This document shows, piece after piece, positions 1-17,594 of a stretch of DNA of 24,477 nucleotides. The translations under genes were made by a program, and so were the position numbers. A model generated the notes under the pieces. That model did no database searches and was not told where the DNA came from. It saw only the letters and a list, made by a program, of their open reading frames with translations. Position 1 is the first letter of the stretch. Every line of letters begins with the position of its first letter. Source of the stretch: Candidatus Nanobsidianus stetteri (GTDB lineage Archaea; Nanobdellota; Nanobdellia; Nanobdellales; Nanobdellaceae); contig APJZ01000006.1 of the NCBI GenBank assembly GCA_000387965.1, forward strand, positions 1 through 24,477, given 5' to 3'.

Positions 1-3000
1 TCTGCATAATTATTTATTGATTGAATTTGTGTGTTACATAATGATCCTGCACACATGGATTGTTGATATTCAAAATCTGAATTACAATTTCTAGAGAATT
101 GCGCTCCATTAAATATTATATAACATGTTTGTGCATTCTTATCTACTATATTAAATGTTGTTAATGATTGTAATTGTGCTCCATTTGGTGGGGAAATTAC
201 ATAACTTATTGGTAATATTATTGAATAATTATATATGTATGTATTCCATCCATAAATTGTAAATGTTATATTATAATCTTGTGGAGAACAATATAGATTT
301 GTTATATTAATTTCTACATTAAAATATCCTATTTGATTTGGATTTAATGAATTTATTTGACCACTAGTACTTAATATTTGTATACAACTTGAATTATAGT
401 ATATATTTTGTATAGATATATTTTCAGCAGGTACCGGTCCTGTATTTTGTACTGCTATAGTTATATTTGAAGGTTGTCCATATGTTATTTGAGTTAATGA
501 TGGATTAGTATATATATTTAATGTATCCCAGTTTATATTTACATATCCATAATATGTTACAGGATTATATACGGTTAATCCATATGCATTTTGATATGTT
601 ACACTATAATTTATCGTACAATCTTGATGTTGACATAGATCTGTTGGGAAATAAATATATAATGGAGAATATTGCTGTTGCTGTAATAAGAAACTACTAT
701 TTGGATCATTTGGAAGAGTCCAATTTATATTTATTGTAAGATTTCCTACTCCAACATTTGTTATATTACCAATATAAATTGCATCGCCTGGATTTATATT
801 ATAAATATATGGATAGTATGTTAAATTTTGTAAATATACACTAGCATTTGGATTTATTACTAATAAATAATATCCTGGTTCTGGGTATATTGGTAACCAT
901 CCTTCTGCCTGTCCAGTTATATTACCAATATTACATAAAATTCCATCTGCATCACATATATAATCTGCCGGATTATTACATATAGTTTTTACATAATCTT
1001 GATATATTACATAATAACCTGCATTATTTACACTAAAATTATATAAAGTAAAGTAAGAACTTCCTGAAGGGAAACCTTTTGGAACTAATAATCCTTCGTT
1101 TGGATATATATTATAAACAGTATTTCTATCTATATTATATTGTGTAAAGTTGAATGGTAGATTTGATATACCTTGTACATATTGGAATGAATTTGTATTA
1201 TAATATTGATTTGAGCTATATAACCAAGCAGAAACAGAGGGTGGAGTACTTTTTGTAGCACCATCGCTGCATAAATCGTTATACCCACTACTTACATTAA
1301 ATCCTACAGAACTATTTTGTGCTAGAACATATATTCCGTCATAATATGTATAATATGATCCTGAATATGGTCCATAATATGAGAATTGTATAGATAGAGG
1401 ATTTGAATCTGAATAAGCACCAGATATTGTCCATCCATGAGAACATGATTGAGTAGTAAATTCTCCAGAACTTGCTACTAATACTTGTAATGGATTATTA
1501 ATAAATGCTTGATTAAATGAAATATTGTCATAATAATATTCTCCATAATATATATAATTTCCAGCATTGTTATCATAATTACTTATATTTAGATCACATA
1601 AGTTCTGACCCCAATCTGGATCTCCAGATCCTGGACAATTTGTTCTAGTAACTACACTTGTTCCATTTGGTAAAATTACTGTAAAGTTAAAGTATGTATT
1701 ATTTAATAAATTATTTGAAGAAGGACAACCTGGAATTATTTGTCCTGCATCATCTGCTCCTTGATATATTGGATTTGTATAATATTCAAAATAATATGGA
1801 TAATTTAAATATATGAATCCTGTATAATTATATTGATCACAAGATAACAATTGGAGATTTTTACCACTTACTGTACAATTTTGAACAGTTATATTATAAT
1901 CTATTATTGTAGAATTCATATTATTTGGCAAATTTAATGGTAAATTGTTGAAATACACTGTATAATTATAAATAGGTGTAATATTTCCTAAATAACTATA
2001 ATTACCAATTGCAAAAATTTGTGATGGATTTGATGAATTATAAAATTCATAAGAAACTGTTACAGTTCCATTAAATCCTTGTGTTGTTATATTTAAAGAA
2101 TCTGAAGGTGTACATATTTGATTTGAACTTAGATATAGTTCCTGAGAATGTATATTAAATAATAGTGGTAATAAGACTAATACAAAGATAAATAATTTTT
2201 TCTTTTTCAGTACCATAAATAATATTATTGCGATAAATATTATTAATATTACCAGATAATAGTTTGAATAATTATAATTATTTTGCACATTATTTATTGG
2301 CTGTGTTTGATTTGTAGTTATATTTTGAATCGTATTATTTATTATCCATAAATTAGAATATTGAGATGAATAGAAAGAAATATAATAAACTCCACTACCC
2401 AATGTGTAATTTAAACAATTATTATTTATGTTTGTAGTATATATTATGTTTGATTCTGAATTATATCCTATATTTAATATTCCAGAAATATTTGAACATA
2501 TATAGAAATAATTATTTGTATAATTTACATAAATTAAATTACTTATTGGAATACCATAAGTATTTGATTGATTTAAAATATAATATGTACAATATGCATA
2601 ATCTAAATTATTATTAGAATATAGATTTATACATAAATCAAAGCTAGTAGAATTTAATGGTAATTGTAAATTCACATAAGTAAATTGCGTACTATTCCAA
2701 CTTATATTTCCTAAATATATATTTTCTTTAAATCCTAATGTATTTGAATAAACTTCTGCTATTACATTTGGAGTAACTGGATATGTATAATGATCTGGAG
2801 ATGGGGCTACTATAAATGTTAAATTTCCGTTACCTTGTAAATAAACACCATCTAATCTTGTTGTTGGACCTAAAACAATAAATCTTAATCTATATATTGA
2901 TTCTGTTTGATTATTATATAATAAAGTTATTCTTAATGAATAAGCATTTGGATTCAATGTTGCAACATTTATATATGGAATATTTATTATATTATATCCT

Positions 3001-3755
3001 TCATTTAGTTGTATATTTTCAGTATAATTGTATACGGGATTATATAAAATATCATCCCATGGGGATATTAAAATATTTAATGTAGCATTTGTATTTATAC
3101 TTGAATATATACCAACTGTTAAATTAATATAATTTGAAACACCATATCCGGAAGGCCCACTTAATGAGGAATAATAATATCCTGATGAAGATAATACACT
3201 ACCCCATGTATATAAAGCAGGAGAACTTAAATATGTATCATTTTTAATAATATAAATTTCTGGAACATTATTTGGGTTATTTATATAAAATTCTTGATAT
3301 ACTCCTGGATAATATATAAATGGTAGACCATTTATTTCACTTAAAGGTGTATATAAATATGCAACAATATAATAATATCCGGAAGGTAAATTATCCGGAA
3401 TTGTATAATTTAATGGTATATTTAAAGATTCTCCTGGTTGCAAATATATATTTTTTATTACATATTCATATACTTCATTATCAGATGTAAATTGGAATGG
3501 ATAAATATTATTATTATCATTTTTTTGTATTATTTGTATTACTAATGATGCGTTTGATATATAATAAATATCTCTATAATTTATATAAACATTATAATAC
3601 AATGTTTGACCTACAGATAAATTATTATTCGATAAATTTATACTCAAAAATGTTACTGGTTGATATAAAGATGTTGAATGCCATATATTATACCCCTGAG
3701 AAAAAATTGAATATAGGGAAAATAAAAGAAATGATAATAAATATATCTTTTTCAT
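1..3755 (-). CDS. Very large secreted/surface glycoprotein-like ORF, partial (runs off the left edge, at least 1251 codons). It holds two complete 'signal peptide + ectodomain' modules in one reading frame
   Basis: Hand translation of the minus strand. ATG at 3755-3753 is preceded by an in-frame TGA (3764-3762). The stretches I translated by hand (both ends, the 2142-2291 junction, 1-62) contain no stop; for the rest I rely on the supplied track, which lists no minus-strand ORF here and appears to omit edge-truncated ORFs. N-terminus MKKIYLLSFLLFSLYSIFSQ/GYN looks like a signal peptide. Composition is N/Y/I/S/T-rich with dozens of N-x-S/T sequons. A hydrophobic anchor YYLVILIIFIAIILF (2261-2217) is followed directly by MVLKKKKLFIFVLVLLPLLFNIHSQ/ELY (2216-2142), then a Cys-rich ectodomain with a CARDB/Ig-like stretch GQPSNITIAVQNTGPVPAENI (about 416-478). 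Confidence 0.75.
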   Translation of the reverse strand, partial: MKKIYLLSFLLFSLYSIFSQGYNIWHSTSLYQPVTFLSINLSNNNLSVGQTLYYNVYINYRDIYYISNASLVIQIIQKNDNNNIYPFQFTSDNEVYEYVIKNIYLQPGESLNIPLNYTIPDNLPSGYYYIVAYLYTPLSEINGLPFIYYPGVYQEFYINNPNNVPEIYIIKNDTYLSSPALYTWGSVLSSSGYYYSSLSGPSGYGVSNYINLTVGIYSSINTNATLNILISPWDDILYNPVYNYTENIQLNEGYNIINIPYINVATLNPNAYSLRITLLYNNQTESIYRLRFIVLGPTTRLDGVYLQGNGNLTFIVAPSPDHYTYPVTPNVIAEVYSNTLGFKENIYLGNISWNSTQFTYVNLQLPLNSTSFDLCINLYSNNNLDYAYCTYYILNQSNTYGIPISNLIYVNYTNNYFYICSNISGILNIGYNSESNIIYTTNINNNCLNYTLGSGVYYISFYSSQYSNLWIINNTIQNITTNQTQPINNVQNNYNYSNYYLVILIIFIAIILFMVLKKKKLFIFVLVLLPLLFNIHSQELYLSSNQICTPSDSLNITTQGFNGTVTVSYEFYNSSNPSQIFAIGNYSYLGNITPIYNYTVYFNNLPLNLPNNMNSTIIDYNITVQNCTVSGKNLQLLSCDQYNYTGFIYLNYPYYFEYYTNPIYQGADDAGQIIPGCPSSNNLLNNTYFNFTVILPNGTSVVTRTNCPGSGDPDWGQNLCDLNISNYDNNAGNYIYYGEYYYDNISFNQAFINNPLQVLVASSGEFTTQSCSHGWTISGAYSDSNPLSIQFSYYGPYSGSYYTYYDGIYVLAQNSSVGFNVSSGYNDLCSDGATKSTPPSVSAWLYSSNQYYNTNSFQYVQGISNLPFNFTQYNIDRNTVYNIYPNEGLLVPKGFPSGSSYFTLYNFSVNNAGYYVIYQDYVKTICNNPADYICDADGILCNIGNITGQAEGWLPIYPEPGYYLLVINPNASVYLQNLTYYPYIYNINPGDAIYIGNITNVGVGNLTININWTLPNDPNSSFLLQQQQYSPLYIYFPTDLCQHQDCTINYSVTYQNAYGLTVYNPVTYYGYVNINWDTLNIYTNPSLTQITYGQPSNITIAVQNTGPVPAENISIQNIYYNSSCIQILSTSGQINSLNPNQIGYFNVEINITNLYCSPQDYNITFTIYGWNTYIYNYSIILPISYVISPPNGAQLQSLTTFNIVDKNAQTCYIIFNGAQFSRNCNSDFEYQQSMCAGSLCNTQIQSINNYA

Positions 3756-3780
3756 AAAAATTCATTCATAAAAAATTTTT

Positions 3781-5643
3781 TTAAATCTTCTTACCAGTTG
3801 CAATTTCTATAACTTCATCTATTGTTTTTACAGGTGTTATTTTTATCTTATCAAATAAATCTTCAGGTATATCATTATAATTACCCTCCGGTACTATAAC
3901 TTCTTTTAATTTAGATTCTATTGCAGCTTCTACTTTTGCTATTATACCGCCAACAGGTAATACCTCTCCCCTTATTGATAAAGAACCTGTCATTGCCAAA
4001 TCCTGTCTCACTGGCCAATTCTTTAATGCGGATATTATTGCAGTTGCAACAGTTATTGAAGCTGAATCTCCCTCTACACCTTCATATGTTTGTAAAAATT
4101 GAACATGAACTTTGTATTTCTTCAAATCTTCTCCAAATTTCTTTTTTACTACTGCAGATACATTTACTATTGCCTCTTTTGCAATCTTTCCTAAGTTTCC
4201 AGTAGCAGTAATTTCTCTACCACCCTTTCCAGGTACAACCTCTGCCTCAACAGGTAATACCAATCCTGAATAATATAACCTTGATCCAATTACTGCCAAT
4301 CCATTTACCCTTCCAATTTCATATCCATCAGTTTTTATTATTTGATATTCTTTCCTTCTTTCAATATAATATTTTGATATTTGCTCTTCAATTGTTAATG
4401 CTTTTTCCTTTGCTTCTATAACATCTTCAGGTTCGACATATTTTTTTCCTTTTGACTTTGCAATATCTCCAGCCAATCTTACCAATCCTCCCAAATCTCT
4501 TAATCTTAATGTTAAATAACTTTTTCTTCCAGATCTTCTTTGGGCTTCTCTAATAATTTCTATAACAGCCTCTTTTGTAAAATGTGGTATATTACCTGTC
4601 TTTTTAACTTCTTGCGCTACAAATTGTACAAATTTATTTGCACTTTCTTCTGTAAATAATATTTCAGAATTCATAAATACTTCATATCCATATCCTCTTA
4701 TTCTTGATCTAAATGCTGGATGTAATTTTTCCAATGTTTCCAAATTTCCAGCTGCTACTAATACAAAATCAGCGGGAGCTGGAGTAGTTCTTACCATTGC
4801 ACCAGCAGATCTTTCAGATCTTCCAAATATTGGATATTTCTTTTCTTGTAAAACAGATAATAATTCTATCTGAACCTCTGGTCTTAATGTTCCAATTTCA
4901 TCTATAAACAATACTCCTTTATTTGCCTTATGTATTGCACCAGCAATTACTCTTTGATGTGCTGGAGTTTCAAGACCTCCAGATTGAAATGGATCATGTA
5001 ATACATCTCCAAATAACATACCTTCAAATGCACCTGTAGCATCTACGAATGGTACAGAAGTTCTGTTTGAATTATCTACCAATAATTTTGGTATATTTTT
5101 CATTATTTGCTTTTGCATTACTTGGAAAGAAAATGATATGCTAGCCATTAAAATCATAAATCCGATAAATGTTGCACCGGCCATTATATAATTTCCTTCA
5201 TAGTAAAAGTACATTGGAGTAAATGCTGATATAAGTAATAATAAAATATAGAAATATTGGAAAATTTTTGTTTGTTCCAATACTTTTTTTCTCATTTCTT
5301 CTACAATTTTTTTACCAGTTCCCATTGGTACCGTTTTTATTATTGGTTGATATTCATCATTTGGATTTGGGAATACCAATATATCTTCTAAATTTTTAAC
5401 TTGTTCTTTATCTTCTGATAATATTTCTGCCAATGCTTGTGCTAGCATAGATTTACCAGTACCAGGATCTCCTATTAATAAAACATGCCTCCTCTGTTTA
5501 GCAGCTTTTTTAATTATATCCAATGCCTTATCTTGTCCAATAATTTGCTCTGATATCTTTTCAGGTACATTTATTTCTTCTGTAGTCTTAAATTTGAATA
5601 TACTATATAGATCCTTTATTGATATTATGTTATTTTCGGACAT
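3781..5643 (-). CDS. lonB: Archaeal membrane-bound Lon protease (LonB type)
   Basis: 620 aa. Walker A GDPGTGKS. Two hydrophobic helices are inserted in the AAA+ module ([19 protein letters not shown]..., [18 protein letters not shown]), which is typical of archaeal LonB. C-terminal Lon protease domain with Ser motif [20 protein letters not shown] and downstream Lys ([10 protein letters not shown]). Confidence 0.95.
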
Positions 5644-9350: not shown

Positions 9351-10019
9351 TTATTGAGATTTTCCCTTATCTCCACCCTGTTTTTCAGACCCTTTTCCAC
9401 CTTCAGAACCGACACCGGTACCGGAAAATATCAAAAATATTCCTATTAGAATAAAAAATATCATTGCAAACAGTATATAAGGATTAAAAGTTATTATATA
9501 ATTTTGTGCCTGTGGAGATGTACCAAAAGTTATTGATAAAAAATACTTTTGATATGCATAATACATAGATAGTAAAGCAAACAAAATAATAAATACTACT
9601 ATTATTATTGGTATATATCTAGCACTACTTGGTTTTCCTTCAGTTGAAAATAATCTTTTTTCTATTACTTCGAATATTTTACCATTCGTTAACAAAGCTC
9701 CTAAAAGTATGAAGAAAAAGAATACTAAAATCATTGATACTACAAAAGCTACAAAATATTGTGTATATGATACAAAACCAGTAAATGTTGTTAACAATAA
9801 TGATGCAGAGATGGATATAATAAATGCTAATGTGCTATTTATATCTTTCTTTGATCCCCCTTCATCTTTCTTTTCTCCTTTTTCACCTGCTTTTACCATA
9901 CTATCCATTAAAAATTTTAATAGAAAATATAATATTCCAAAATAGAATAAAAAAACAAATATTAAATTTATCCCTAATATATTTACTACATTTATTATAA
10001 AATCCGCAAATGATGTCAT
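9351..10019 (-). CDS. Integral membrane protein with G/K/E-rich loop and tail, function unknown
   Basis: 222 aa with about 5-6 hydrophobic segments. Charged loop KAGEKGEKKDEGGSKKD and tail GTGVGSEGGKGSEKQGGDKGKSQ. Lies 33 nt downstream of the glycogen synthase gene on the same strand. Its stop abuts the SBDS stop with 0 nt between them. Confidence 0.6.
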   Translation of the reverse strand: MTSFADFIINVVNILGINLIFVFLFYFGILYFLLKFLMDSMVKAGEKGEKKDEGGSKKDINSTLAFIISISASLLLTTFTGFVSYTQYFVAFVVSMILVFFFFILLGALLTNGKIFEVIEKRLFSTEGKPSSARYIPIIIVVFIILFALLSMYYAYQKYFLSITFGTSPQAQNYIITFNPYILFAMIFFILIGIFLIFSGTGVGSEGGKGSEKQGGDKGKSQ

Positions 10020-10052: not shown

Positions 10053-11672
10053 TTACATAGAATCGTAAATGTTTGTATATTCGTTTATATTATTTTTCCA
10101 ATCAAATTTCTTAGATATTTCATATATTTGCTTCTTTATTTCCATTTTACCATATAAATCCAAATTATAATATTGTAAAAATTTATTATATATAATTTCT
10201 TTATCCAAATTGTTTGGATCTACATTAATTATATATTCATGATTTATGTTTTTACTTATTAGATTTCTATAAAATCCAGTTTTATTAGATAAAACAATTG
10301 GAACAAAATTGTTCAATGCTTCTAATGGTGTATATCCGTAAGGTTCATATCTTGATAAAAATATCCCAAAATCGAATGCTGGTAATATATATTCTGGATC
10401 TAAGCTAAATAAAATATCATTTCCAAGATAAACTGGAACATATATAACTTTTACATAATTATTTTTATCATTATTTAAATTGTTTTCCCTTAATTTTTCA
10501 ATTATAATATTATTTTCTACATCATGAGTACATATTGGTGGATTTTTATTCTTTATCCTATCTAATTTATCCAATATATTTTTTCCATTATATAATGATC
10601 TAATAATTAAATGAATATTTTCTTCTATACTTTCTTTCAATTTTATATACTCTTTATAAGATCTAATTATATCATTATTTTGTCCTTTAATATTATAAGG
10701 AACAAAAATAAATGCAACAGTACTTAATTTCTTTTCATCTAAATATTTCAATAAATCAATAAATAGATCTAAACCCTTATTATATGGTTCGTATCTTCCA
10801 ATTGTATATATTAGCAAATATTTTTCTGGTAAATCATAATATGGATAAAAATACCATGTTAAAATTTCATCTATCCATTTCTTTGAAATTTTATAATAAT
10901 TAAATAATTCTTTTTCTTTTACATTTATGTAATTATAAGTTATATAATCTGGCTTTCTCTTATATATTTTATATGCTTCCTCTCCCAAATTATCAGATAC
11001 TACTGTAAAAATATCAGAATTTAATATTGCCTGTTTTTCCAATTGATATTTTGAATTTACTCCCAATCTATATGAATCCTTATCTGGATCTATTATATCA
11101 AATGCATTCTCTACATTTACATTTTTTTCAGATAATGTTCTTCCAATAACTGTTCCATGAATTGTTAATATTGTTTTATAATTTAGATTATTTTTCTTTA
11201 TATATAATATTGTACCTCCAGATAACCATTCATGCGCATGTAATATTTTTTTCTCATTAAAATATTTATCCAATTTTTCTAAAAATATACCAACAGCAAC
11301 AGACCATAATAATGGCTCATCAAAAGTAAAATCTGAATTTAAAGAATCTATTTTATACCATTCCCAATATTTATATTTCCATAAATTTCTTTCTTTATTA
11401 AAAAATTCATCAAATTCTATCAAAAATACATTTGGTTTTGATTCAATATTCCAATATCCATAATGTACTTTAATTCCATCCAATTGATAATTTATTTCTT
11501 TTATATAATCCGGAGAATCCAATTCTATAAATTCCGAATTATTTTTATAGGGACCAATTAAAAAATACTTATCCTTATATTTTTCCTTTATATATTTTGC
11601 TTTAGTAGATATTACAGTATATATTCCTCCTACTTTATTACATACTTCCCAAGATTGTTCAAACAATATCAT
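10053..11672 (-). CDS. Glycogen (starch) synthase, eukaryote-type GT3 family
   Basis: 539 aa. N-terminus [42 protein letters not shown] closely parallels the animal/fungal glycogen synthase N-terminus as I recall it ([24 protein letters not shown]...DNYFLVGPY). C-terminal [29 protein letters not shown] parallels PSYYEPWGYTPAEC...SGFG. Confidence 0.85.
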   Translation of the reverse strand: [539 protein letters not shown]

Positions 11673-12331
11673 CTAAATAAAATATCAAATATACTTCTTC
11701 TCCTTTTATTACCAGTTATACAATATGCCAGCTCATCTATATATTTTAATGCCTTTGATTTTTCATTATAAAATGCAATTGGTTGATATTGAAATTGATA
11801 TTTAATAAAATCTTTAATTACTGGAATAACTACATATACTTCTTTATTATATACATCCTCTATAAAATCTATTTCAATACTTTTATCATATTTATTTAAT
11901 ACTATCTTAACCTTATTTTTATCTAAAAGATCATATAATTTTTTATTTACATATAAAGAATAAAAGTCTGGATTTATTACTAAAAAATTTATATCTGATA
12001 TTTTCTCAATACTTAATATATAATTTATATTTGGAAGTACATCGAAAATAATTACATCATAATACCTTTTCAAATAATTTAGATCACTGATATTAAAATC
12101 TAAATTATCTATAATTTTTAAATGGAAGTAGGGTAATACTTTTATTCCTTCATATATTTTATTTCCAAATAATTTTTCATTATTTAGAAATATTAAATTT
12201 GAAGAATAAGTACCATTTGTATCTATTATTAATACCTTATAATTATATTCTTTTTTTAAATATGCTGCAAGATTATTAGTCAATGTTGTTTTTCCAACTC
12301 CGCCCTTTAATGATATAAAAGATACTATCAT
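11669..12331 (-). CDS. ParA/MinD-family P-loop ATPase with basic-amphipathic C-terminal tail
   Basis: 220 aa. Deviant Walker A with signature Lys (SLKGGVGKTTL). Walker A' VLIIDTN and Walker B DVIIFDV. C-terminus NKRRRSIFDILFR resembles a MinD-type membrane-targeting helix (compare KGFLKRLFG). ATGA 4-nt overlaps with both neighbours. Confidence 0.85.
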   Translation of the reverse strand: MIVSFISLKGGVGKTTLTNNLAAYLKKEYNYKVLIIDTNGTYSSNLIFLNNEKLFGNKIYEGIKVLPYFHLKIIDNLDFNISDLNYLKRYYDVIIFDVLPNINYILSIEKISDINFLVINPDFYSLYVNKKLYDLLDKNKVKIVLNKYDKSIEIDFIEDVYNKEVYVVIPVIKDFIKYQFQYQPIAFYNEKSKALKYIDELAYCITGNKRRRSIFDILFR

Positions 12332-12642
12332 AATCCTAATAATTTTGAAAATTTTACTTCAGCCTCTTCTTTTGAAAACTTTTTCTTTACATATATTTCA
12401 TGAGCTTTTAAGAAATTTCCTATAATTTTTATATATTCATCCTTATCTTTTGCTTCTTTTATTTTTTCATATAAACTTTCCTCCTTTAATGAATTTTTTA
12501 TCCATTCTGGAAAATGGTTTTTATGATAATTAAATTTATCTTGATCTGCATTGTATAACCAAATTAATAAATCTTGAAGACTATATAATTTTTGTCCATC
12601 AATAGTGATAAATGCTTGTTTTTCATCATCAACTTCAATCAT
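12328..12642 (-). CDS. Small soluble protein, unknown function, first gene of the ParA-GT3 operon
   Basis: 104 aa. Pattern FITIDGQKLYSLQDLLIWLYNADQDKFNYHKNHFPEWIKNSL followed by a K/E-rich helical tail. From memory it resembles a small domain found near GH57/glycosyltransferase genes in other archaea, but I cannot name the family with confidence. TGA stop overlaps the ParA ATG. Confidence 0.55.
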   Translation of the reverse strand: MIEVDDEKQAFITIDGQKLYSLQDLLIWLYNADQDKFNYHKNHFPEWIKNSLKEESLYEKIKEAKDKDEYIKIIGNFLKAHEIYVKKKFSKEEAEVKFSKLLGL

Positions 12643-12679: not shown

Positions 12680-13855
12680 ATGACAGGCATTGTATTTTAT
12701 TTCCATGCACATCAACCAAGAAGAATAAGATATTATTCCTTTTTTGATATTGGATCGAAAAATTATTTCAACGATGATCTAAATAAGAGAATATTAGATA
12801 GGGTTGTACATAAATGTTATAAACCGGCATTAGAAATGATATATGATAATATTATAAAATACGATATAAAAGTATCATTTTCAATTTCTGGAACATTAAT
12901 TGAGCAATTAGAACTATATCATCCAGAAATTTTAGAATTATGGAAAAAATTAGTAGATACTGGAAATGTAGAAATTGTATCAGAAACATACTATCATTCA
13001 TTGGCATATTTAATTGATAAAGATGAATTTATTAACCAAATAAAATTGCATAGAAAGAAAATAAAGGAAGTATTTAATTATAAATCTAAAAGCTTTAGAA
13101 ACTTTGAACTTGTATTTAACAATGAAATAGGAGAAATTGTATATTCTTTAGGATATAAAGTTGCATTAACTGAAGGAACTGAAAAAATTTTGGGAAATAG
13201 AAGTCCAAATTATGTATATAAATTAAAAATAAATAATTTAAGATTATTATTGAGAAATTATAGATTATCTGATGATATAGGATTTAGATTTACAAATAAA
13301 AATTGGTCAGAATATCCATTAACTGCAGATAAATATTATTTATGGTTAAAGAGCACTCCAGGAGATATAATAAATATATTCATGGACTTTGAAACAATTG
13401 GAGAACATATATGGAAAGAATCTGGAATATTTGAATTTTGGAATAAGTTATTTGAATATATTGGAAAAGAAAAATATTTTGAAACATACAATATAACCGA
13501 AGCTTCAGAAGAGTTAGATTATAAAGATGAATTAGATATTCCTGAATTAATATCATGGGCAGATATTGAGAGAGATCTATCTGCATGGATTGGAGATAGT
13601 ATACAAAGAGAAGCATTAGATTATTTGAGAGAATTATATAAAAAATATAAGAATGATGGAAAAATATTAAATATATTGAGATATTTATCAACTTCAGATA
13701 ACTTTTACTATATGAGTTTAAAATATAATAGCGATGGAGATGTACATAAATATTTTAGGGAAGAAGCTTTTGCAACTCCATATGATTCTTTTATATCCTA
13801 TATGAATATTTTAAAAGATTTAGAATTAAATGAGACTATTGAAAATAGAAATTAA
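12680..13855 (+). CDS. Glycoside hydrolase family 57 enzyme (alpha-amylase, 4-alpha-glucanotransferase or branching-enzyme class; specificity unresolved)
   Basis: 391 aa. GH57 conserved regions: FHAHQP (region I), GNVEIVSETYYH (II), an E-containing FELVFNNE (III, candidate nucleophile), FMDFETIGEH (IV, candidate acid/base Asp) and LSTSDNFYYM (V). Confidence 0.8.
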   Translation: MTGIVFYFHAHQPRRIRYYSFFDIGSKNYFNDDLNKRILDRVVHKCYKPALEMIYDNIIKYDIKVSFSISGTLIEQLELYHPEILELWKKLVDTGNVEIVSETYYHSLAYLIDKDEFINQIKLHRKKIKEVFNYKSKSFRNFELVFNNEIGEIVYSLGYKVALTEGTEKILGNRSPNYVYKLKINNLRLLLRNYRLSDDIGFRFTNKNWSEYPLTADKYYLWLKSTPGDIINIFMDFETIGEHIWKESGIFEFWNKLFEYIGKEKYFETYNITEASEELDYKDELDIPELISWADIERDLSAWIGDSIQREALDYLRELYKKYKNDGKILNILRYLSTSDNFYYMSLKYNSDGDVHKYFREEAFATPYDSFISYMNILKDLELNETIENRN

Positions 13856-15022
13856 TTTTTCTACAGAATTTTTCCAAGATAAATTTTTTATATCATCTAA
13901 ACATAATTTTATCTCATATTCTCCCAATTTTGGATAAGATAGCAATGCTAATATATAATCCGCCATTTTATTTACATCCCAAAAATCAACTGCCAATGCG
14001 TTTTTTAATACTTCATATACACCTGTTTGTTTTGATATTATAATAAAGTCTTTATATTTTAAAGCTTCAAATGGTGTTAAACCAAAAGGTTCTGATATGG
14101 ATGGCAAAACAAATATATCCGCTATTGAATATAAATATTCTGCTAGATCGTCATCAACCCATCCTGTAAATATTACATTTTTTGATATATTTAAATCTGC
14201 AGCCATTTTTATTAATTGTTCTAACATTTCTCCGGTTCCTGCAAATATAAATAATACATCCTTTCTTTTTTCTAAAACTCTTTTAGCCGCTCTTAATAAA
14301 TAATCTGGACCCTTATGCATTGTCATTCTCCCAAGATATAATACTATTTTATATTTTTCTTTTATTTTACTATTTATTTTTTCTTTTATACTAAAATCAT
14401 CATCCGGAGCATTATATATTACATCAATTTTATTTTCATCACAATTATAATATTTTACCAATATATCTTTCTCTCTTTTACTTACTACTACAATCTTATC
14501 TGCATATTTACAAGCTTCCAACTCTATTCCATAATCATAATCATATAAATATTTTAATACATCTGGATTTCCTCCAACTCTATCATATACCAAAGAATGA
14601 AAATGAATAACCAATGGTTTTTTGTATATTTTCTTTATTTCTATACCTGCTAAAGCAGTTAACCAATCATATGCATATATAATATCAAAATCTAATTTCA
14701 TTTTCTTTAATATATCTAATATTCTATCTTTATATTCAATTACTGCTTTTTTATAGTCTATAATTTTTCTTTTATATAATGTAAAAGATCCATATTTAAA
14801 ATAATCTATATATGATTGATATAATTTCATATTTAATCCGAAGATTTTTGAATTCTTTAATTTATTATTCCAAAAGGATTTTACATCATCGGTCAAGTTT
14901 AAAATAAATAAATAAACAACATTATTAAAATAATCAAGATATTTTAAATAATAATATGTTACTTTTTCCAATCCACCACCTTTTTGAGGAAATACTCCCC
15001 ATGATAAAAATAGTATTTTCAT
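13826..15022 (-). CDS. GT-B glycosyltransferase, GT4/GT5 (GlgA-like) family
   Basis: 398 aa. N-terminus MKILFLSWGVFPQKGGGLEKV resembles archaeal GlgA (E-x-PP-x-KVGGL). C-terminal nucleotide-sugar motif PSISEPFGLTPFEALKYK. The 3' end overlaps the convergent GH57 3' end by 30 nt. Confidence 0.8.
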   Translation of the reverse strand: MKILFLSWGVFPQKGGGLEKVTYYYLKYLDYFNNVVYLFILNLTDDVKSFWNNKLKNSKIFGLNMKLYQSYIDYFKYGSFTLYKRKIIDYKKAVIEYKDRILDILKKMKLDFDIIYAYDWLTALAGIEIKKIYKKPLVIHFHSLVYDRVGGNPDVLKYLYDYDYGIELEACKYADKIVVVSKREKDILVKYYNCDENKIDVIYNAPDDDFSIKEKINSKIKEKYKIVLYLGRMTMHKGPDYLLRAAKRVLEKRKDVLFIFAGTGEMLEQLIKMAADLNISKNVIFTGWVDDDLAEYLYSIADIFVLPSISEPFGLTPFEALKYKDFIIISKQTGVYEVLKNALAVDFWDVNKMADYILALLSYPKLGEYEIKLCLDDIKNLSWKNSVEKLISIFNSLI

Positions 15023-15073: not shown

Positions 15074-16678
15074 ATGGAAAAGGAAATTGAATTAGAAAAT
15101 TTTGATTATGCTATTATAAATAATAAAGGATCCTTTTTGTTTTTACCTTTACTATATAACAGTAGATATTTTGGTTTATTACAATATTATAATAACAATT
15201 TTATCAAAATAATAGAAAAGATAGAAAATAGGGATATAAATTATAGTGAAATTGAAAAGATAATATTAAAGGATTATAATGATTTAAAAATAATTTATAA
15301 AAATGGATGGGAAGAATATAAATTAATAGATAATAAATTAATATATAAAACAAATAAATATTCTACTTTGAATGTTTATTTTGATATAAGATATTTATAT
15401 GATATAGATGAATGGGGAAGGATATATAATAATGAAAAAAATAAGGATTATGTAAAGATAAAATTTAATAAAGGCGATTTAAATTATGAAGTAATAATAA
15501 AGGGATTTGAGATTTATCAAGAATTAAATAAATGGATGAAGGTAAATTATAATTATGATTTATATAGAAAATCTCCCCCATTTGAAAGATATATATATTT
15601 ACCATTTTCTTTTTATGCAAAGGAATTGGAAATAATATATAAAAATGATAAGGAAAATTTAAATGGAAAGAATTTAATTGAAAATAGATTATTATCCTTT
15701 ATTTATGATAATAACATTTCTGCAGGTTTTCCATGGTATTTTCAGGAATGGAGTAGAGATTTGTTAATTTCATTAAAGGGATTATATTATATTAATAAAG
15801 ATATTGTAAAGAATAAGTTAATTGAATATTCAAATTATTTTTTACTAGATGGAAGATTAAAAAATATAAAAAATGAAAATGTTGGTAATTCTGATGGGAT
15901 TGGATTGTATATTTTTAGATTATTTCAATTTAAAGATTTGTTTGAAAAAGAAATATTTGACAAATTAATAAATAATATAATTGAAAAGTTAAAATTATTT
16001 GAAGAAAATTATTTAGATGAAAAATTATTTTTATTTAAAGCATATCAAAATGAAACATGGATGGATACATTAAATAGAATTTATCCAATAGAAATACAAT
16101 TCTTAATGGCAAATGCATATGATAATTTATATAATTATACAAAGAAAGATGAATATAAAGAAAAATTGGAAAAAATAAGAAATTCAATTAGAAAGAATTA
16201 TTTATCAGATTATTCTTTATATGATGATATAAAAAATAAAAAGATAAGATGCAATGTATTTTTATCCTATTATTTTTATCCAAAGATCTTTTCAAATTAT
16301 GAGTGGGAAAATATTTTTGATTATTCATTAACTCATTTATATCTAAAATGGGGAGGAATTAGTAGTTTATCTATATTTGATAAAGAATTTATTCCATATA
16401 GTAATGAAGATAATTATTTTAAAAATGAAGGAAAGTCAATGCATAATGGAGATTCATGGATTTTTATAAACAACATTGCTGCTATTGATTTATATAATTT
16501 AAATAAAGAAAAATATGGAAATATAATAAATAGTATTTTAAAATCTAATGAAAGATTGATAAAAATGATAGGAACATTACCAGAAAGATCTAGCGCATAT
16601 GAGTTAAAACCAGCAGGGGCTCTACATCAACTATGGTCAATATCAACTTATATAGAATTATTAAATAATATAAAATAA
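15074..16678 (+). CDS. Amylo-alpha-1,6-glucosidase / glycogen debranching enzyme (GDE C-terminal family)
   Basis: 534 aa. Motifs GFPWYFQEWSRDLLISLKGL (compare G-x-PWF-x-x-WGRDT), ETWMDT, HNGDSWIF and LPERSSAYELKPAGALHQLWSIS (compare GC-x-x-QAWS) fit the (alpha/alpha)6 GDE_C fold. Confidence 0.75.
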   Translation: MEKEIELENFDYAIINNKGSFLFLPLLYNSRYFGLLQYYNNNFIKIIEKIENRDINYSEIEKIILKDYNDLKIIYKNGWEEYKLIDNKLIYKTNKYSTLNVYFDIRYLYDIDEWGRIYNNEKNKDYVKIKFNKGDLNYEVIIKGFEIYQELNKWMKVNYNYDLYRKSPPFERYIYLPFSFYAKELEIIYKNDKENLNGKNLIENRLLSFIYDNNISAGFPWYFQEWSRDLLISLKGLYYINKDIVKNKLIEYSNYFLLDGRLKNIKNENVGNSDGIGLYIFRLFQFKDLFEKEIFDKLINNIIEKLKLFEENYLDEKLFLFKAYQNETWMDTLNRIYPIEIQFLMANAYDNLYNYTKKDEYKEKLEKIRNSIRKNYLSDYSLYDDIKNKKIRCNVFLSYYFYPKIFSNYEWENIFDYSLTHLYLKWGGISSLSIFDKEFIPYSNEDNYFKNEGKSMHNGDSWIFINNIAAIDLYNLNKEKYGNIINSILKSNERLIKMIGTLPERSSAYELKPAGALHQLWSISTYIELLNNIK

Positions 16679-16679
16679 G

Positions 16680-17594
16680 ATGTGGTGGAAAAAATATGGG
16701 TTCTTTAGGAATCCTTTAGATATAAGACCAAATGAAGATTTAGTAGGAGTAGATGATATAATAAAAAAGGTAAAGGATTCTATAATAAATGGTGAAATAT
16801 TTCTATTATATGGCCCAATTGGTTCTGGAAAAACTTCTTTAGCATTTAAAATTAAAAAAGATCTATCGGATGATTATAATATAATATATATAAATGGAGA
16901 ATATGAAAAAGATAAAGACATAAATTATATAATTGAAAAAAATAAGTATATTAAGTTTTTATTCTTTAAATTTGAAAATAAATTACCTATAGTATTAATA
17001 TTAGATGAATTTTATAATTTCCCAGAAGATATATCTAAAAAACTAAAATATTTATATGATAATAAAATTGTTCATTCAATAATGTTAATTCAACCATCTC
17101 CACAAATAATGAATGCTTCTTTATCTTTCTTAAATAGATTATATAGAAAGATTGAAATGAAATTTCCTCCAGAAGATGAAATATTAAAATTGATAAATAA
17201 AAAATTAAAGGGAAGAGTAAATATAGACGAAAAAATATTGAGAAATTTAATAAGAAAAAATAATAATAATGTTAGGCAGATATTTATTGAATTAAATAAT
17301 CTATTGGAAGAGGGAATAAATAATATAAATAAAGAATTAGAAGAAATAAAGAATCTGGGAGATGATATAAGATTGTCAAATACACAGATAAAGATTCTAG
17401 AAGTATTATATAAAAATAAGATGTCTTCAAGAGAAATATCGAAAATATTAAATCTTCCAAGGAATACTGTATCAAAATATTTGAATAAAATGTATAAAAA
17501 GGGTATATTAATAAGAGAAGTAAATAACAATGAATATATTTATAGTATAAATCCTCAATATATAAATATTATATCAAAGAAAATTGGAAAATAG
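16680..17594 (+). CDS. AAA+ (ExeA/AAA_22- or Orc1/Cdc6-like) ATPase with C-terminal winged helix-turn-helix
   Basis: 304 aa. N-terminus YGFFRNPLDIRPNEDLVG resembles the ExeA-type FGL-x-x-x-PF lead-in. Walker A GPIGSGKTS and Walker B VLILDEF. C-terminal wHTH LSNTQIKILEVLYKNKMSSREISKILNLPRNTVSKYLNKMYKKGILI. ATG lies 1 nt after the debranching-enzyme stop. The last G of its TAG stop is base 1 of tRNA-Thr. Confidence 0.7.
   Translation: MWWKKYGFFRNPLDIRPNEDLVGVDDIIKKVKDSIINGEIFLLYGPIGSGKTSLAFKIKKDLSDDYNIIYINGEYEKDKDINYIIEKNKYIKFLFFKFENKLPIVLILDEFYNFPEDISKKLKYLYDNKIVHSIMLIQPSPQIMNASLSFLNRLYRKIEMKFPPEDEILKLINKKLKGRVNIDEKILRNLIRKNNNNVRQIFIELNNLLEEGINNINKELEEIKNLGDDIRLSNTQIKILEVLYKNKMSSREISKILNLPRNTVSKYLNKMYKKGILIREVNNNEYIYSINPQYINIISKKIGK

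Follow-up and report, generated by a model that had tools for sequence, protein, structure and literature searches.

Closest described systems and the glycogen locus under study

ATPases of the ParA/MinD superfamily, acting together with small adaptor proteins, position DNA, carboxysomes, chemoreceptor arrays, flagella and other cargos; one such ATPase, BcsQ, works for a secreted glucan synthase. To our knowledge, no ParA/MinD system has been tied to the synthesis of storage glycogen, and we know of none with a DUF5752 protein as the partner. The present study concerns a candidate for such a system, namely, three overlapping minus-strand genes encoding a DUF5752 protein, a MinD-type ATPase and a GT3-family glycogen synthase in a stretch of DNA from the archaeon Candidatus Nanobsidianus stetteri (contig APJZ01000006.1; 24,477 nt, G+C of about 23%), the whole of which is referred to below as the window. 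The proteins encoded in the window were 90-97% identical to Ca. Nanopusillus and Ca. Nanobsidianus entries, and its gene order agreed with the gene table of Nanopusillus acidilobi (PMC4935971 Supplementary Data 1). The trio sits within a larger glycogen cluster, which also includes genes for a GH57 hydrolase, a GT4/5 glycosyltransferase, a debranching enzyme (GDE_C) and a regulator that joins an AAA+ domain to a winged helix-turn-helix (wHTH). The features of the trio are the following:

12328..12642, minus strand: single-repeat OrfY/DUF5752-like protein, 104 aa (open reading frame (ORF), profile and structure matches)
11669..12331, minus strand: divergent MinD-clade (ParA/MinD superfamily) ATPase, 220 aa (Pfam, AlphaFold2 (AF2), Foldseek, neighbour-joining (NJ) tree)
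10053..11672, minus strand: GT3-family glycogen synthase, 539 aa (PF05693)
12328..12331, minus strand: ATGA start/stop overlap, 4 nt, between the DUF5752 and ATPase genes (sequence)
11669..11672, minus strand: ATGA start/stop overlap, 4 nt, between the ATPase and GT3 genes (sequence)
12284..12307, minus strand: deviant Walker A motif of the ATPase, K9-G-G-V-G-K14-T-T, with the signature and P-loop lysines (sequence)
11672..11713, minus strand: C-terminal tail of the ATPase, G207-R220, with a basic cluster (KRRR) and an amphipathic SIFDILFR, a candidate MinD-type membrane-targeting sequence

The closest precedent was found in cellulose synthesis, where BcsR (7 kDa) and BcsQ, a member of the MinD superfamily, are encoded upstream of the cellulose synthase and assemble into an ATP-bound R2Q2 complex. 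This complex is essential for secretion and for the output of the synthase, and BcsR occupies the MinE-equivalent interface in it (PMC7840130). The order of the E. coli-type operon (bcsRQABZC), which runs from a very small protein through a MinD-superfamily ATPase to a glucan synthase, is the same as that in the window; moreover, BcsQ is a structural neighbour of the window ATPase (rank 14), and many orthologues of the latter are auto-annotated as 'BcsQ' by the Joint Genome Institute. However, the Bcs system makes a secreted beta-glucan by means of a membrane GT2 enzyme, whereas the window encodes a soluble GT3 enzyme for an intracellular alpha-glucan. In BcsQ, Thr replaces the cis-lysine (PMC7840130), whereas the window ATPase keeps both P-loop lysines; its partner belongs to DUF5752 and is unrelated to BcsR, and the organism is archaeal, with no c-di-GMP components present. 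The statement in the initial annotation that no ParA-type system dedicated to glycogen had been described stands as to the literature, in which no publication linking ParA/MinD ATPases or DUF5752 to glycogen was found, but has to be qualified by this close precedent.

With MinD, the window ATPase shares the deviant Walker A motif and the fold; its clade was placed as sister to the DPANN MinDs, and its basic/amphipathic tail resembles the MinD membrane-targeting sequence. Unlike bacterial MinCDE, the cluster has neither MinC nor MinE, its context is that of glycogen, and a separate MinD/ParA paralogue is present elsewhere. ParAB and McdAB are similar as two-gene modules in which a ParA/MinD ATPase and a small adaptor are encoded beside cargo genes, and the acidic low-complexity linkers of the long DUF5752 proteins at two related loci (L030 and L036, described below) are presumably reminiscent of McdB-type adaptors. 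In contrast, ParA and McdA work on the nucleoid matrix with an ATPase that has no membrane tail and an adaptor that is encoded downstream, whereas in the window the tail and the complementarity with tail anchors point to the membrane and the adaptor gene lies upstream. What is suggested as new here is a MinD/ParA-plus-adaptor module with a new cargo, glycogen, and a new adaptor family, DUF5752.

Recurrence of DUF5752 and MinD genes in glycogen clusters

The three overlapping genes would be best explained as an accessory module of a DPANN-type glycogen cluster, and a functional tie of the trio to glycogen metabolism is considered reasonably probable. The identity of the GT3 glycogen synthase, proposed in the initial annotation, was confirmed by a match to PF05693 over residues 5-483 (254 bits, E = 4e-75); for the archaeal GT3 synthases, enzyme activity has never been measured, and initiation is an open question (alpha-glucan review, PMC11046441).

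A GT3 alignment was scanned against one genome per GTDB species, which yielded 80 loci, and the neighbourhoods of these were searched with local hidden Markov models (HMMs). The GT4/5-GH57-GT3 core proved to be widespread in DPANN archaea, Bacteroidota, Planctomycetota and other bacteria. DUF5752 genes were present at 22 of the 80 loci, usually two in tandem, and nearly all of these loci were archaeal. At the non-Nanopusillaceae loci, every DUF5752 ORF (37/37) lay at most 730 nt from a GT3, GH57 or GT4 gene, and throughout 1.15 Mb of GT3 loci the domain was confined to glycogen clusters. Because most of the clusters have DUF5752 without MinD, the tie of the small protein to glycogen clusters is independent of the ATPase.

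In L030 and L036, a gene for a 258-261-aa MinD lies between the second DUF5752 gene, which it overlaps by 4 nt, and GT3, in an operon of the order GT4-GH57-DUF5752-DUF5752-MinD-GT3-GalT-PGM-GDE. These two are canonical DPANN MinDs (47-49% identity to P0097), and they grouped with the Nanopusillaceae clade in 0 of 100 bootstraps. The generic DPANN MinDs P0097 and P0107, considered as further candidates, were set aside, as they stand in unrelated contexts with no glycogen surroundings.

A second scan, of metagenomes with the L036 and L030 MinDs as seeds, gave 80 further loci, of which 64 were evaluable (538 kb). A DUF5752 gene was found directly upstream of MinD, overlapping its start, at 7 of the 64 loci, whereas of about 453 other gene slots only 1 contained such a gene (p = 2e-6), and glycogen-synthase genes were found near MinD at 4 of the 6 assessable DUF5752-linked loci as against 0 of 57 unlinked ones (p = 3e-5); both p-values treat the loci as independent, while the truly independent MinD-linked lineages number about 3-4. 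Apart from a second, tandem copy in L093, these 538 kb contained no other DUF5752 gene. The operon of L030 is found again in L093 and L094, with a canonical DPANN MinD between DUF5752 and GT3, and a deeper, third MinD group is represented by L100 (GT3-PGM-PAS/wHTH-DUF5752-MinD) and L120 (PAS-GT4/5-DUF5752-MinD). The DUF5752 and MinD genes overlap by 4-11 nt in L030, L036, L093, L094, L100, L120, L140, L143 and L147. According to these neighbourhoods, overlapping DUF5752-MinD pairs are present in no fewer than three separate MinD lineages.

It might be supposed that two functions lie side by side here, the DUF5752 protein being a glycogen accessory and the ATPase a general MinD positioner, for cell division, the archaellum or another cargo, that is parked at the locus or uses DUF5752 as one adaptor of several. 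Archaeal MinDs do position non-division cargo; the canonical DPANN MinDs form the sister group of the ATPase clade and include the L030 and L036 copies themselves; and, besides the many DUF5752 glycogen clusters that do without MinD, there are pairs, in L140 and L147, with no synthase genes nearby. Such a coexistence is nevertheless improbable, as MinDs of three separate lineages occupy the same slot and always overlap the DUF5752 stop, none of the 57 MinD loci lacking DUF5752 has glycogen genes, and MinD and the tail anchor described below are mutually exclusive. Furthermore, N. acidilobi has a second MinD/ParA protein, Nps_03280, in a canonical-looking context, which makes the copy in the cluster surplus to a general role.

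Within the family, the order GDE_C / GT4-5 / GH57 / small protein / ATPase / GT3 was kept in Nanobdella aerobiophila (L001) and in three Nanopusillaceae lineages that are more distant (L003, L005 and L009/L010). The small-protein and ATPase genes overlapped by 1-4 nt in the Nanopusillaceae relatives, and the overlap of the ATPase and GT3 genes was kept in L001, L003, L005, L009 and L011. The ATPase was 48-62% and the small protein 48-51% identical to the respective orthologues; over all ATPase orthologues, the values ranged from 97% to about 45% identity, followed by a gap to the generic MinDs at about 32%. Conservation of the order of small protein, ParA and GT3 in related archaea, on which the initial annotation had made its hypothesis depend, was thus found at all Nanopusillaceae/Nanobdella loci down to 48% ATPase identity; in archaeal lineages beyond them, phylogenetically separate MinD-type ATPases are encoded either between DUF5752 and GT3 or next to a GT3 or GT4/5 synthase gene.

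Co-transcription of neighbours in a compacted genome, with no functional tie to glycogen, would be a simple account of such an arrangement. The chain of three minus-strand genes joined by two ATGA overlaps agreed in coordinates and reading frames with the initial annotation, but the special coupling read into it there did not hold up: of the 11 same-strand junctions in the window, 5 have overlaps of 4-11 nt, and functionally unrelated pairs are among these. Since overlaps are routine in this genome, ATGA 'translational coupling' carries little weight alone. Likewise, synteny across the family extends equally to the SBDS, proteasome, TFIIB and Lon genes on the flanks, so that conservation within the family alone cannot separate function from inheritance. 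Pure packing is, however, quite improbable, because the linkage is seen again outside the family, where the flanks differ and the MinDs are not orthologous, the DUF5752 domain keeps to glycogen clusters in the GT3 loci, and GH57-DUF5752 fusions exist. In L009/L010, moreover, the triad has survived a rearrangement, staying intact despite a neighbouring two-gene insertion.

Soj-type ParA genes were also noted about 750 nt upstream of GDE_C-GT3 / GH57-GT4 clusters in four Aenigmatarchaeota species; they encode canonical ParA, have no DUF5752 gene nearby and were rejected as probably coincidental:

L043:4575-5330: Soj-type ParA gene, Aenigmatarchaeota
L066:4631-5386: Soj-type ParA gene, Aenigmatarchaeota
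L070:3928-4683: Soj-type ParA gene, Aenigmatarchaeota
L080:4638-5393: Soj-type ParA gene, Aenigmatarchaeota

The loci L014, L017, L019, L022, L030, L031, L034 and L036 come from metagenome-assembled genomes (MAGs) labelled 'uncultured Methanosarcinales archaeon', yet they carry DPANN-like clusters and DPANN-type MinDs; either these labels are unreliable or the module reaches beyond DPANN.

The 104-aa OrfY/DUF5752 protein

The 104-aa protein is a single OrfY/DUF5752 domain. The protein itself had no match in the family libraries, including PF19027 (none at E <= 10), which is a two-repeat model, whereas the window protein has one repeat. However, 7 of its 10 aligned orthologues matched PF19027 (DUF5752), and one of them, P0135, passed the gathering score (25.2 bits against 23). 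The protein that had been annotated as small and unknown can therefore be assigned to a family, and this family, DUF5752/OrfY-like, is not an unrelated housekeeping one, membership of which the initial annotation had named as adverse to its hypothesis. A broad DUF5752 domain HMM matched the 104-aa protein with 82.5 bits (E = 1.4e-25). An exhaustive profile search retrieved 3,105 representative proteins at E <= 1e-3, many of which have the repeat twice in tandem. Of the 69 multi-domain members found with the profile, 57 matched PF19027.

The structure of the protein was modelled with AF2 (predicted local distance difference test (pLDDT) of 86.5), and the only meaningful Foldseek match in the PDB was 4CSO, OrfY of Thermoproteus tenax (probability 0.98; template modelling (TM) score 0.51; root-mean-square deviation 2.0 A over 82 columns). 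The same entry was the top match of the broadened domain profile (A5) among PDB sequences (E = 4e-5, in two repeats); the narrow small-protein profile had no match in the PDB, and the broadened one was needed. Thus, OrfY and the window protein have the same domain by fold, by profile and by the Pfam matches of the orthologues, and share the repeat signature H-x3-5-N-D-F-x-x-W-I...L-A; they differ in the number of repeats, OrfY (216 aa) having two in tandem and the window protein (104 aa) one. The conserved N-terminal domain of the latter includes F11, T13, D15-G16, K18-L19-Y20, D24-L25, W28, F37, H40, F44 and W47-I48, whereas the C-terminal helix is variable and rich in Lys and Glu.

It should be noted that 4CSO was deposited as 'ORFY PROTEIN, TRANSCRIPTION FACTOR'. 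A regulatory switch may be conceived on this basis, with the DUF5752 protein as a regulator and the MinD-type ATPase as its ATP-dependent partner or antagonist, as in FleN-FleQ, the two controlling the expression or activity of the glycogen genes. FleN-FleQ complexes, which are MinD-like, are indeed among the structural neighbours of the ATPase. Genes with PAS and/or wHTH domains directly precede the pair in L100 (3786-4445), L140 (4038-4718) and L147 (5023-5634), and in L120 a PAS gene (1317-1979) lies two genes upstream, an arrangement that hints at a three-gene unit of sensor-regulator, DUF5752 and MinD. In N. acidilobi, proteomics covered roughly one-third of the proteins, among them GT3 (Nps_00385), GT4/5 (Nps_00365), GDE and the AAA+/wHTH regulator (Nps_00355) (PMC4935971); within this coverage, neither the small protein nor the ATPase was detected, which would fit low-abundance regulators. 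Yet neither the model nor OrfY has a helix-turn-helix, ribbon-helix-helix or other recognisable DNA-binding fold, and the only structural match of the model is OrfY itself. In addition, tail-anchored DUF5752 proteins and GH57-DUF5752 fusions are hard to square with a DNA-binding regulator, the cluster already has its own AAA+/wHTH regulator, and no paper on OrfY or DUF5752 was found, including any that would back the PDB label. Such a switch is thus regarded as unlikely. OrfY was also considered as a part of the T. tenax msc-gt-tpsp operon, but the paper on that operon shows otherwise.

Where the domain is fused to other proteins, the partner is mostly a P-loop ATPase, either KaiC/RecA-like or of the HerA/FtsK type, so that a pairing with P-loop ATPases recurs. 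Fusions of this sort were noted in P0160 (1970 aa), P0211 (1347 aa) and P0263 (1227 aa) and in 4 of the 69 members of alignment A4; giant proteins with HerA/FtsK-type ATPase domains have the DUF5752 repeats at the C-terminus, and two of the three proteins named also carry CarboxypepD_reg repeats. In L008 (3258-3787), two small DUF5752-like genes in tandem have ELP3 and the gene for a Ski2-type helicase as neighbours, and no glycogen gene lies less than 10 kb away; consequently, the DUF5752 family is not limited to glycogen clusters.

The 220-aa MinD-clade ATPase

The ATPase can be described as a divergent archaeal protein of the MinD clade, shortened and with its ATP-binding motifs intact. The KGGVGKT motif with the signature lysine, read earlier from the sequence, is present (K9 and K14), and the deviant Walker A motif was invariant across a 29-sequence alignment of relatives; Asp37 of Walker A' (LIIDTN) and Asp97 of Walker B (IIFDV) were conserved as well. 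In Pfam, the protein scored above the cut-offs of CbiA (46.4 against 25.4 bits) and AAA_31 (48.1 against 27 bits), the BcsQ match being limited to the P-loop. It passed no cut-off of the NCBIfam subfamily models: the archaeal MinD model TIGR01969 gave 47.1 bits against 201.75 in a match that covers residues 1-44 only, and the BcsQ model TIGR03371 gave 36.7 bits against 157.85 over residues 3-39 only. The protein is about 40 residues shorter than MinD, without the 'SAPNLGLHL' switch-I segment and about 13 residues that follow it. The switch-I 'D-x-N' was considered as a special, BcsQ-like substitution but is not diagnostic, since the whole DPANN MinD clade has it.

The AF2 model (pLDDT 91.3) had the MinD/ParA fold, and Foldseek gave a probability of 1.00 to many MinD/ParA structures, with MinDs on top (TM score 0.73-0.80). 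The leading neighbours were the MinDs of Aquifex, Pyrococcus and Archaeoglobus, while BcsQ (TM score of about 0.7) and SegA ranked 14th and 17th, respectively. In distance (NJ) trees with 100 bootstraps, the Nanopusillaceae ATPases formed a monophyletic, long-branched clade with 100% support, which was sister to the DPANN MinDs and not inside them.

Chromosome segregation of the SegAB type, in which the ATPase would be a SegA/ParA homologue and the small protein its DNA-binding partner, was suggested by the best PDB sequence match, SegA of S. solfataricus (7DUT), which has the same length of 220 aa and aligned nearly full length (E = 1e-6). The segAB genes are carried by the Crenarchaeota that serve these archaea as hosts, and in SegA-SegB, too, the ATPase and a small-protein partner are encoded by an overlapping pair. 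The identity to SegA was, however, only 24%, the two grouped together in 6 of 100 bootstraps, and the MinDs precede SegA among the structural neighbours. The gene order is reversed, the partner being encoded upstream; this partner is a DUF5752 domain of glycogen clusters and unrelated to SegB; the context is metabolic and not origin-proximal, with no segB-like gene in the window; and the basic/amphipathic C-terminal tail is a trait of MinD and not of ParA or SegA. A segregation system of this kind is therefore highly improbable.

The N. acidilobi orthologue of the ATPase is assigned to arCOG00589, as is a second MinD/ParA ATPase of that organism, Nps_03280, which is encoded beside prolyl-tRNA synthetase (ProRS) and DPH2 (PMC4935971). 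The ATPase of the cluster is thus an additional paralogue that has been kept in a genome of about 0.6 Mb. Nps_03280 follows the uncharacterised Nps_03275 near the ProRS gene (Nps_03270-Nps_03285), and the layout of L140 (ProRS, PAS/wHTH, DUF5752, MinD) is similar to that of this region; Nps_03275 might be another DUF5752 protein.

Putative membrane association and proposed mechanism

The sequence of the ATPase ends in RRRSIFDILFR, as had been pointed out in the initial annotation. The pattern 'ITG + 3-5 basic residues + phi-phi-x-x-phi-phi' was present in the tail of every orthologue, despite 45-48% overall identity, and the MinDs of L030 and L036 also carry a basic and amphipathic tail. In the AF2 model, the tail is a short detached helix at residues 214-219 with low pLDDT. 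Its hydrophobic moment fell in the top percentiles within most orthologues but was not significant in comparison with tail shuffles (p = 0.09-0.9), and therefore only the conservation of the pattern counts. The tail is consistent with a MinD-type membrane-targeting sequence.

In clusters without MinD, a longer DUF5752 paralogue with a hydrophobic C-terminal helix (tail anchor) was found at 10 of 18 loci, or at 11 of 18 with L033, whose evident transmembrane helix failed the filter owing to two charged residues. At the MinD-linked loci, no such paralogue was found (0/14; Fisher p = 0.001); the long DUF5752 paralogue of L030 and L036 has an acidic low-complexity linker and no transmembrane helix, and MinD adjoins it. 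The occurrence of tail-anchored DUF5752 in MinD-less clusters gives indirect support to the idea of a membrane tether. In two cases, L044:6128-7636 (plus strand) and L059:5103-6266 (minus strand), the GH57 enzyme itself ends in a fused DUF5752 domain, which would constitute a Rosetta-stone-type link of DUF5752 to glycogen enzymes; these fusions come from one bacterial MAG and one Aenigmatarchaeota MAG. According to HMMs of the two paralogue classes, tail-anchored and short soluble, the MinD-adjacent DUF5752 copies lean weakly to the tail-anchored class (9/13, by 0-13 bits), with no clear preference among the Nanopusillaceae proteins. A C-terminal 'LL-x-LK-x-VY' ending was considered as a MinD-binding motif and rejected as not specific, since short paralogues with no link to MinD have similar endings.

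In the mechanism proposed, the DUF5752 protein would serve as an adaptor or scaffold, associating with the glycogen-making enzymes or with the nascent glucan, and the dedicated MinD paralogue would dimerise upon ATP binding and bind the DUF5752 protein. The ATPase would attach to the cytoplasmic membrane via its basic/amphipathic C-terminal tail, and the pair would thereby tether GT3 and the growing glycogen particle to the membrane, or organise them there, in a way that ATP can switch. In the relatives without the ATPase, a static equivalent may be provided by the transmembrane anchor of DUF5752 or by the GH57-DUF5752 fusion. We infer the binding of DUF5752 to MinD, the membrane binding, the ligand of DUF5752 and the physiological benefit from sequences and models. 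A switchable tether or organiser for glycogen synthesis is a tentative proposal, somewhat more apt to fail than to hold. The bolder view that DUF5752 and a dedicated MinD paralogue make up an unrecognised system that anchors or organises GT3 and the granule at the DPANN membrane, and that is interchangeable with tail-anchored DUF5752 and with enzyme-DUF5752 fusions, is doubtful, and the positioning or partitioning of granules by the pair, as hypothesised in the initial annotation, would be speculation.

Several observations weigh against the proposed role of the trio as a membrane-linked glycogen module. Along with the routine gene overlaps, the equally syntenic housekeeping flanks, the label of the PDB entry, the absence of the pair from the detected third or so of the N. 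acidilobi proteome, the non-significant hydrophobic moment of the tail and the small number of lineages behind the p-values given above, these include the occurrence of DUF5752 in about 3,100 representative proteins in varied contexts. Most glycogen clusters with DUF5752 have no MinD, and those of L013, L014, L016, L021 and L032 have neither MinD nor a tail anchor, so that a membrane link is not obligatory. Conversely, in L140 and L147 the order is wHTH regulator-DUF5752-MinD, with no synthase in the vicinity.

If the proposal is correct, a function would be assigned to a widespread orphan domain family with about 3,100 representative proteins and one solved structure. The proposal would also mean that even ectosymbiotic archaea with genomes of about 0.6 Mb organise their glycogen metabolism in space, and that a natural experiment exists in which tethering switched by ATP can be compared with a static tail anchor and with fusion to an enzyme. 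On the bolder view, DUF5752/OrfY would be the first scaffold domain of the glycogen machinery to be described in archaea, and the module might bear on how the GT3 synthases of DPANN archaea are initiated or organised, given that glycogenin is required by their relatives in eukaryotes. For Nanopusillus cells that have become detached, glycogen is believed to be a source of limited energetic independence (PMC4935971), and the module offers a concrete handle on this role as well as on the uncharacterised archaeal GT3 synthases.

Neighbouring genes and other observations

The following features adjoin the trio in the window:

12680..13855, plus strand: GH57 glycoside hydrolase (branching-enzyme/amylase family; PF03065, E = 8.5e-73)
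13826..15022, minus strand: GT4/GT5-type glycosyltransferase, 398 aa, second putative glycogen synthase (Glycos_transf_1, Glyco_transf_4, Glyco_transf_5)
15074..16678, plus strand: glycogen debranching enzyme / amylo-alpha-1,6-glucosidase (GDE_C; PF06202, E = 1.6e-18)
16680..17594, plus strand: AAA+ ATPase fused to an ArsR/TrmB-type winged helix (AAA_14, HTH_5 and TrmB matches)
9351..10019, minus strand: polytopic membrane protein, 222 aa (about 5-6 hydrophobic segments)

The GH57 gene, a cluster partner of GT3 at most of the 80 GT3 loci, is divergent from the DUF5752 gene, with a spacer of 37 nt. It converges on the GT4/5 gene, and the 3' ends of the two overlap by 30 nt (13826-13855 of the window); a similar overlap (about 10-40 nt) occurs in L001, L003 and L005. 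The debranching-enzyme gene was kept in all the relatives examined. The AAA+/wHTH gene begins after a 1-nt gap from GDE_C and is conserved across the family, its product being a likely sugar-responsive regulator of the glycogen cluster, and a tRNA-Thr starts at the final base (17594) of its stop codon.

The gene downstream of GT3, after a gap of 33 nt, encodes a polytopic membrane protein, as the initial annotation had it, and five transmembrane domains are annotated in the N. acidilobi orthologue (PMC4935971). The protein, a neighbour specific to this family, was rejected as a member of the module, since it is poorly conserved (28-47% identity to its orthologues) and its gene is split from GT3 by two genes in L009/L010; the gene is also absent from the other MinD-linked clusters. 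The two inserted genes, directly downstream of GT3 (L009:12667-14357; same coordinates in L010), encode an AI-2E-family transporter and a KaiC-like ATPase; KaiC-like ATPases are fusion partners of DUF5752 elsewhere.

Some bacterial MAGs, mainly of Bacteroidota, have the GT3 domain as the N-terminal part of an ORF of about 1,400 aa, usually after GT4 and GH57, and no DUF5752 or MinD gene was found in these bacterial clusters:

L045, L054, L056-L058, L060-L064, L067-L069, L071-L076, L078, L081-L087, L089, L090: loci with GT3 ORFs of about 1,400 aa

An open frame (3-3761, minus strand) that extends past the left end of the window has a length of at least 1,253 aa; it has a signal-peptide-like N-terminus (MKKIYLLSFLLFSLYSIFSQG) and matches by position the N. 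acidilobi 'S-layer domain' protein Nps_00425. The adjacent LonB protease (3781-5643, minus strand) has 620 aa, compared with 1,094 aa in Nanobdella (L001:14708-16666+) and 1,070 aa in L003 (14300-16675+), which suggests either a large insertion in the relatives, perhaps an intein, or a deletion in the window.

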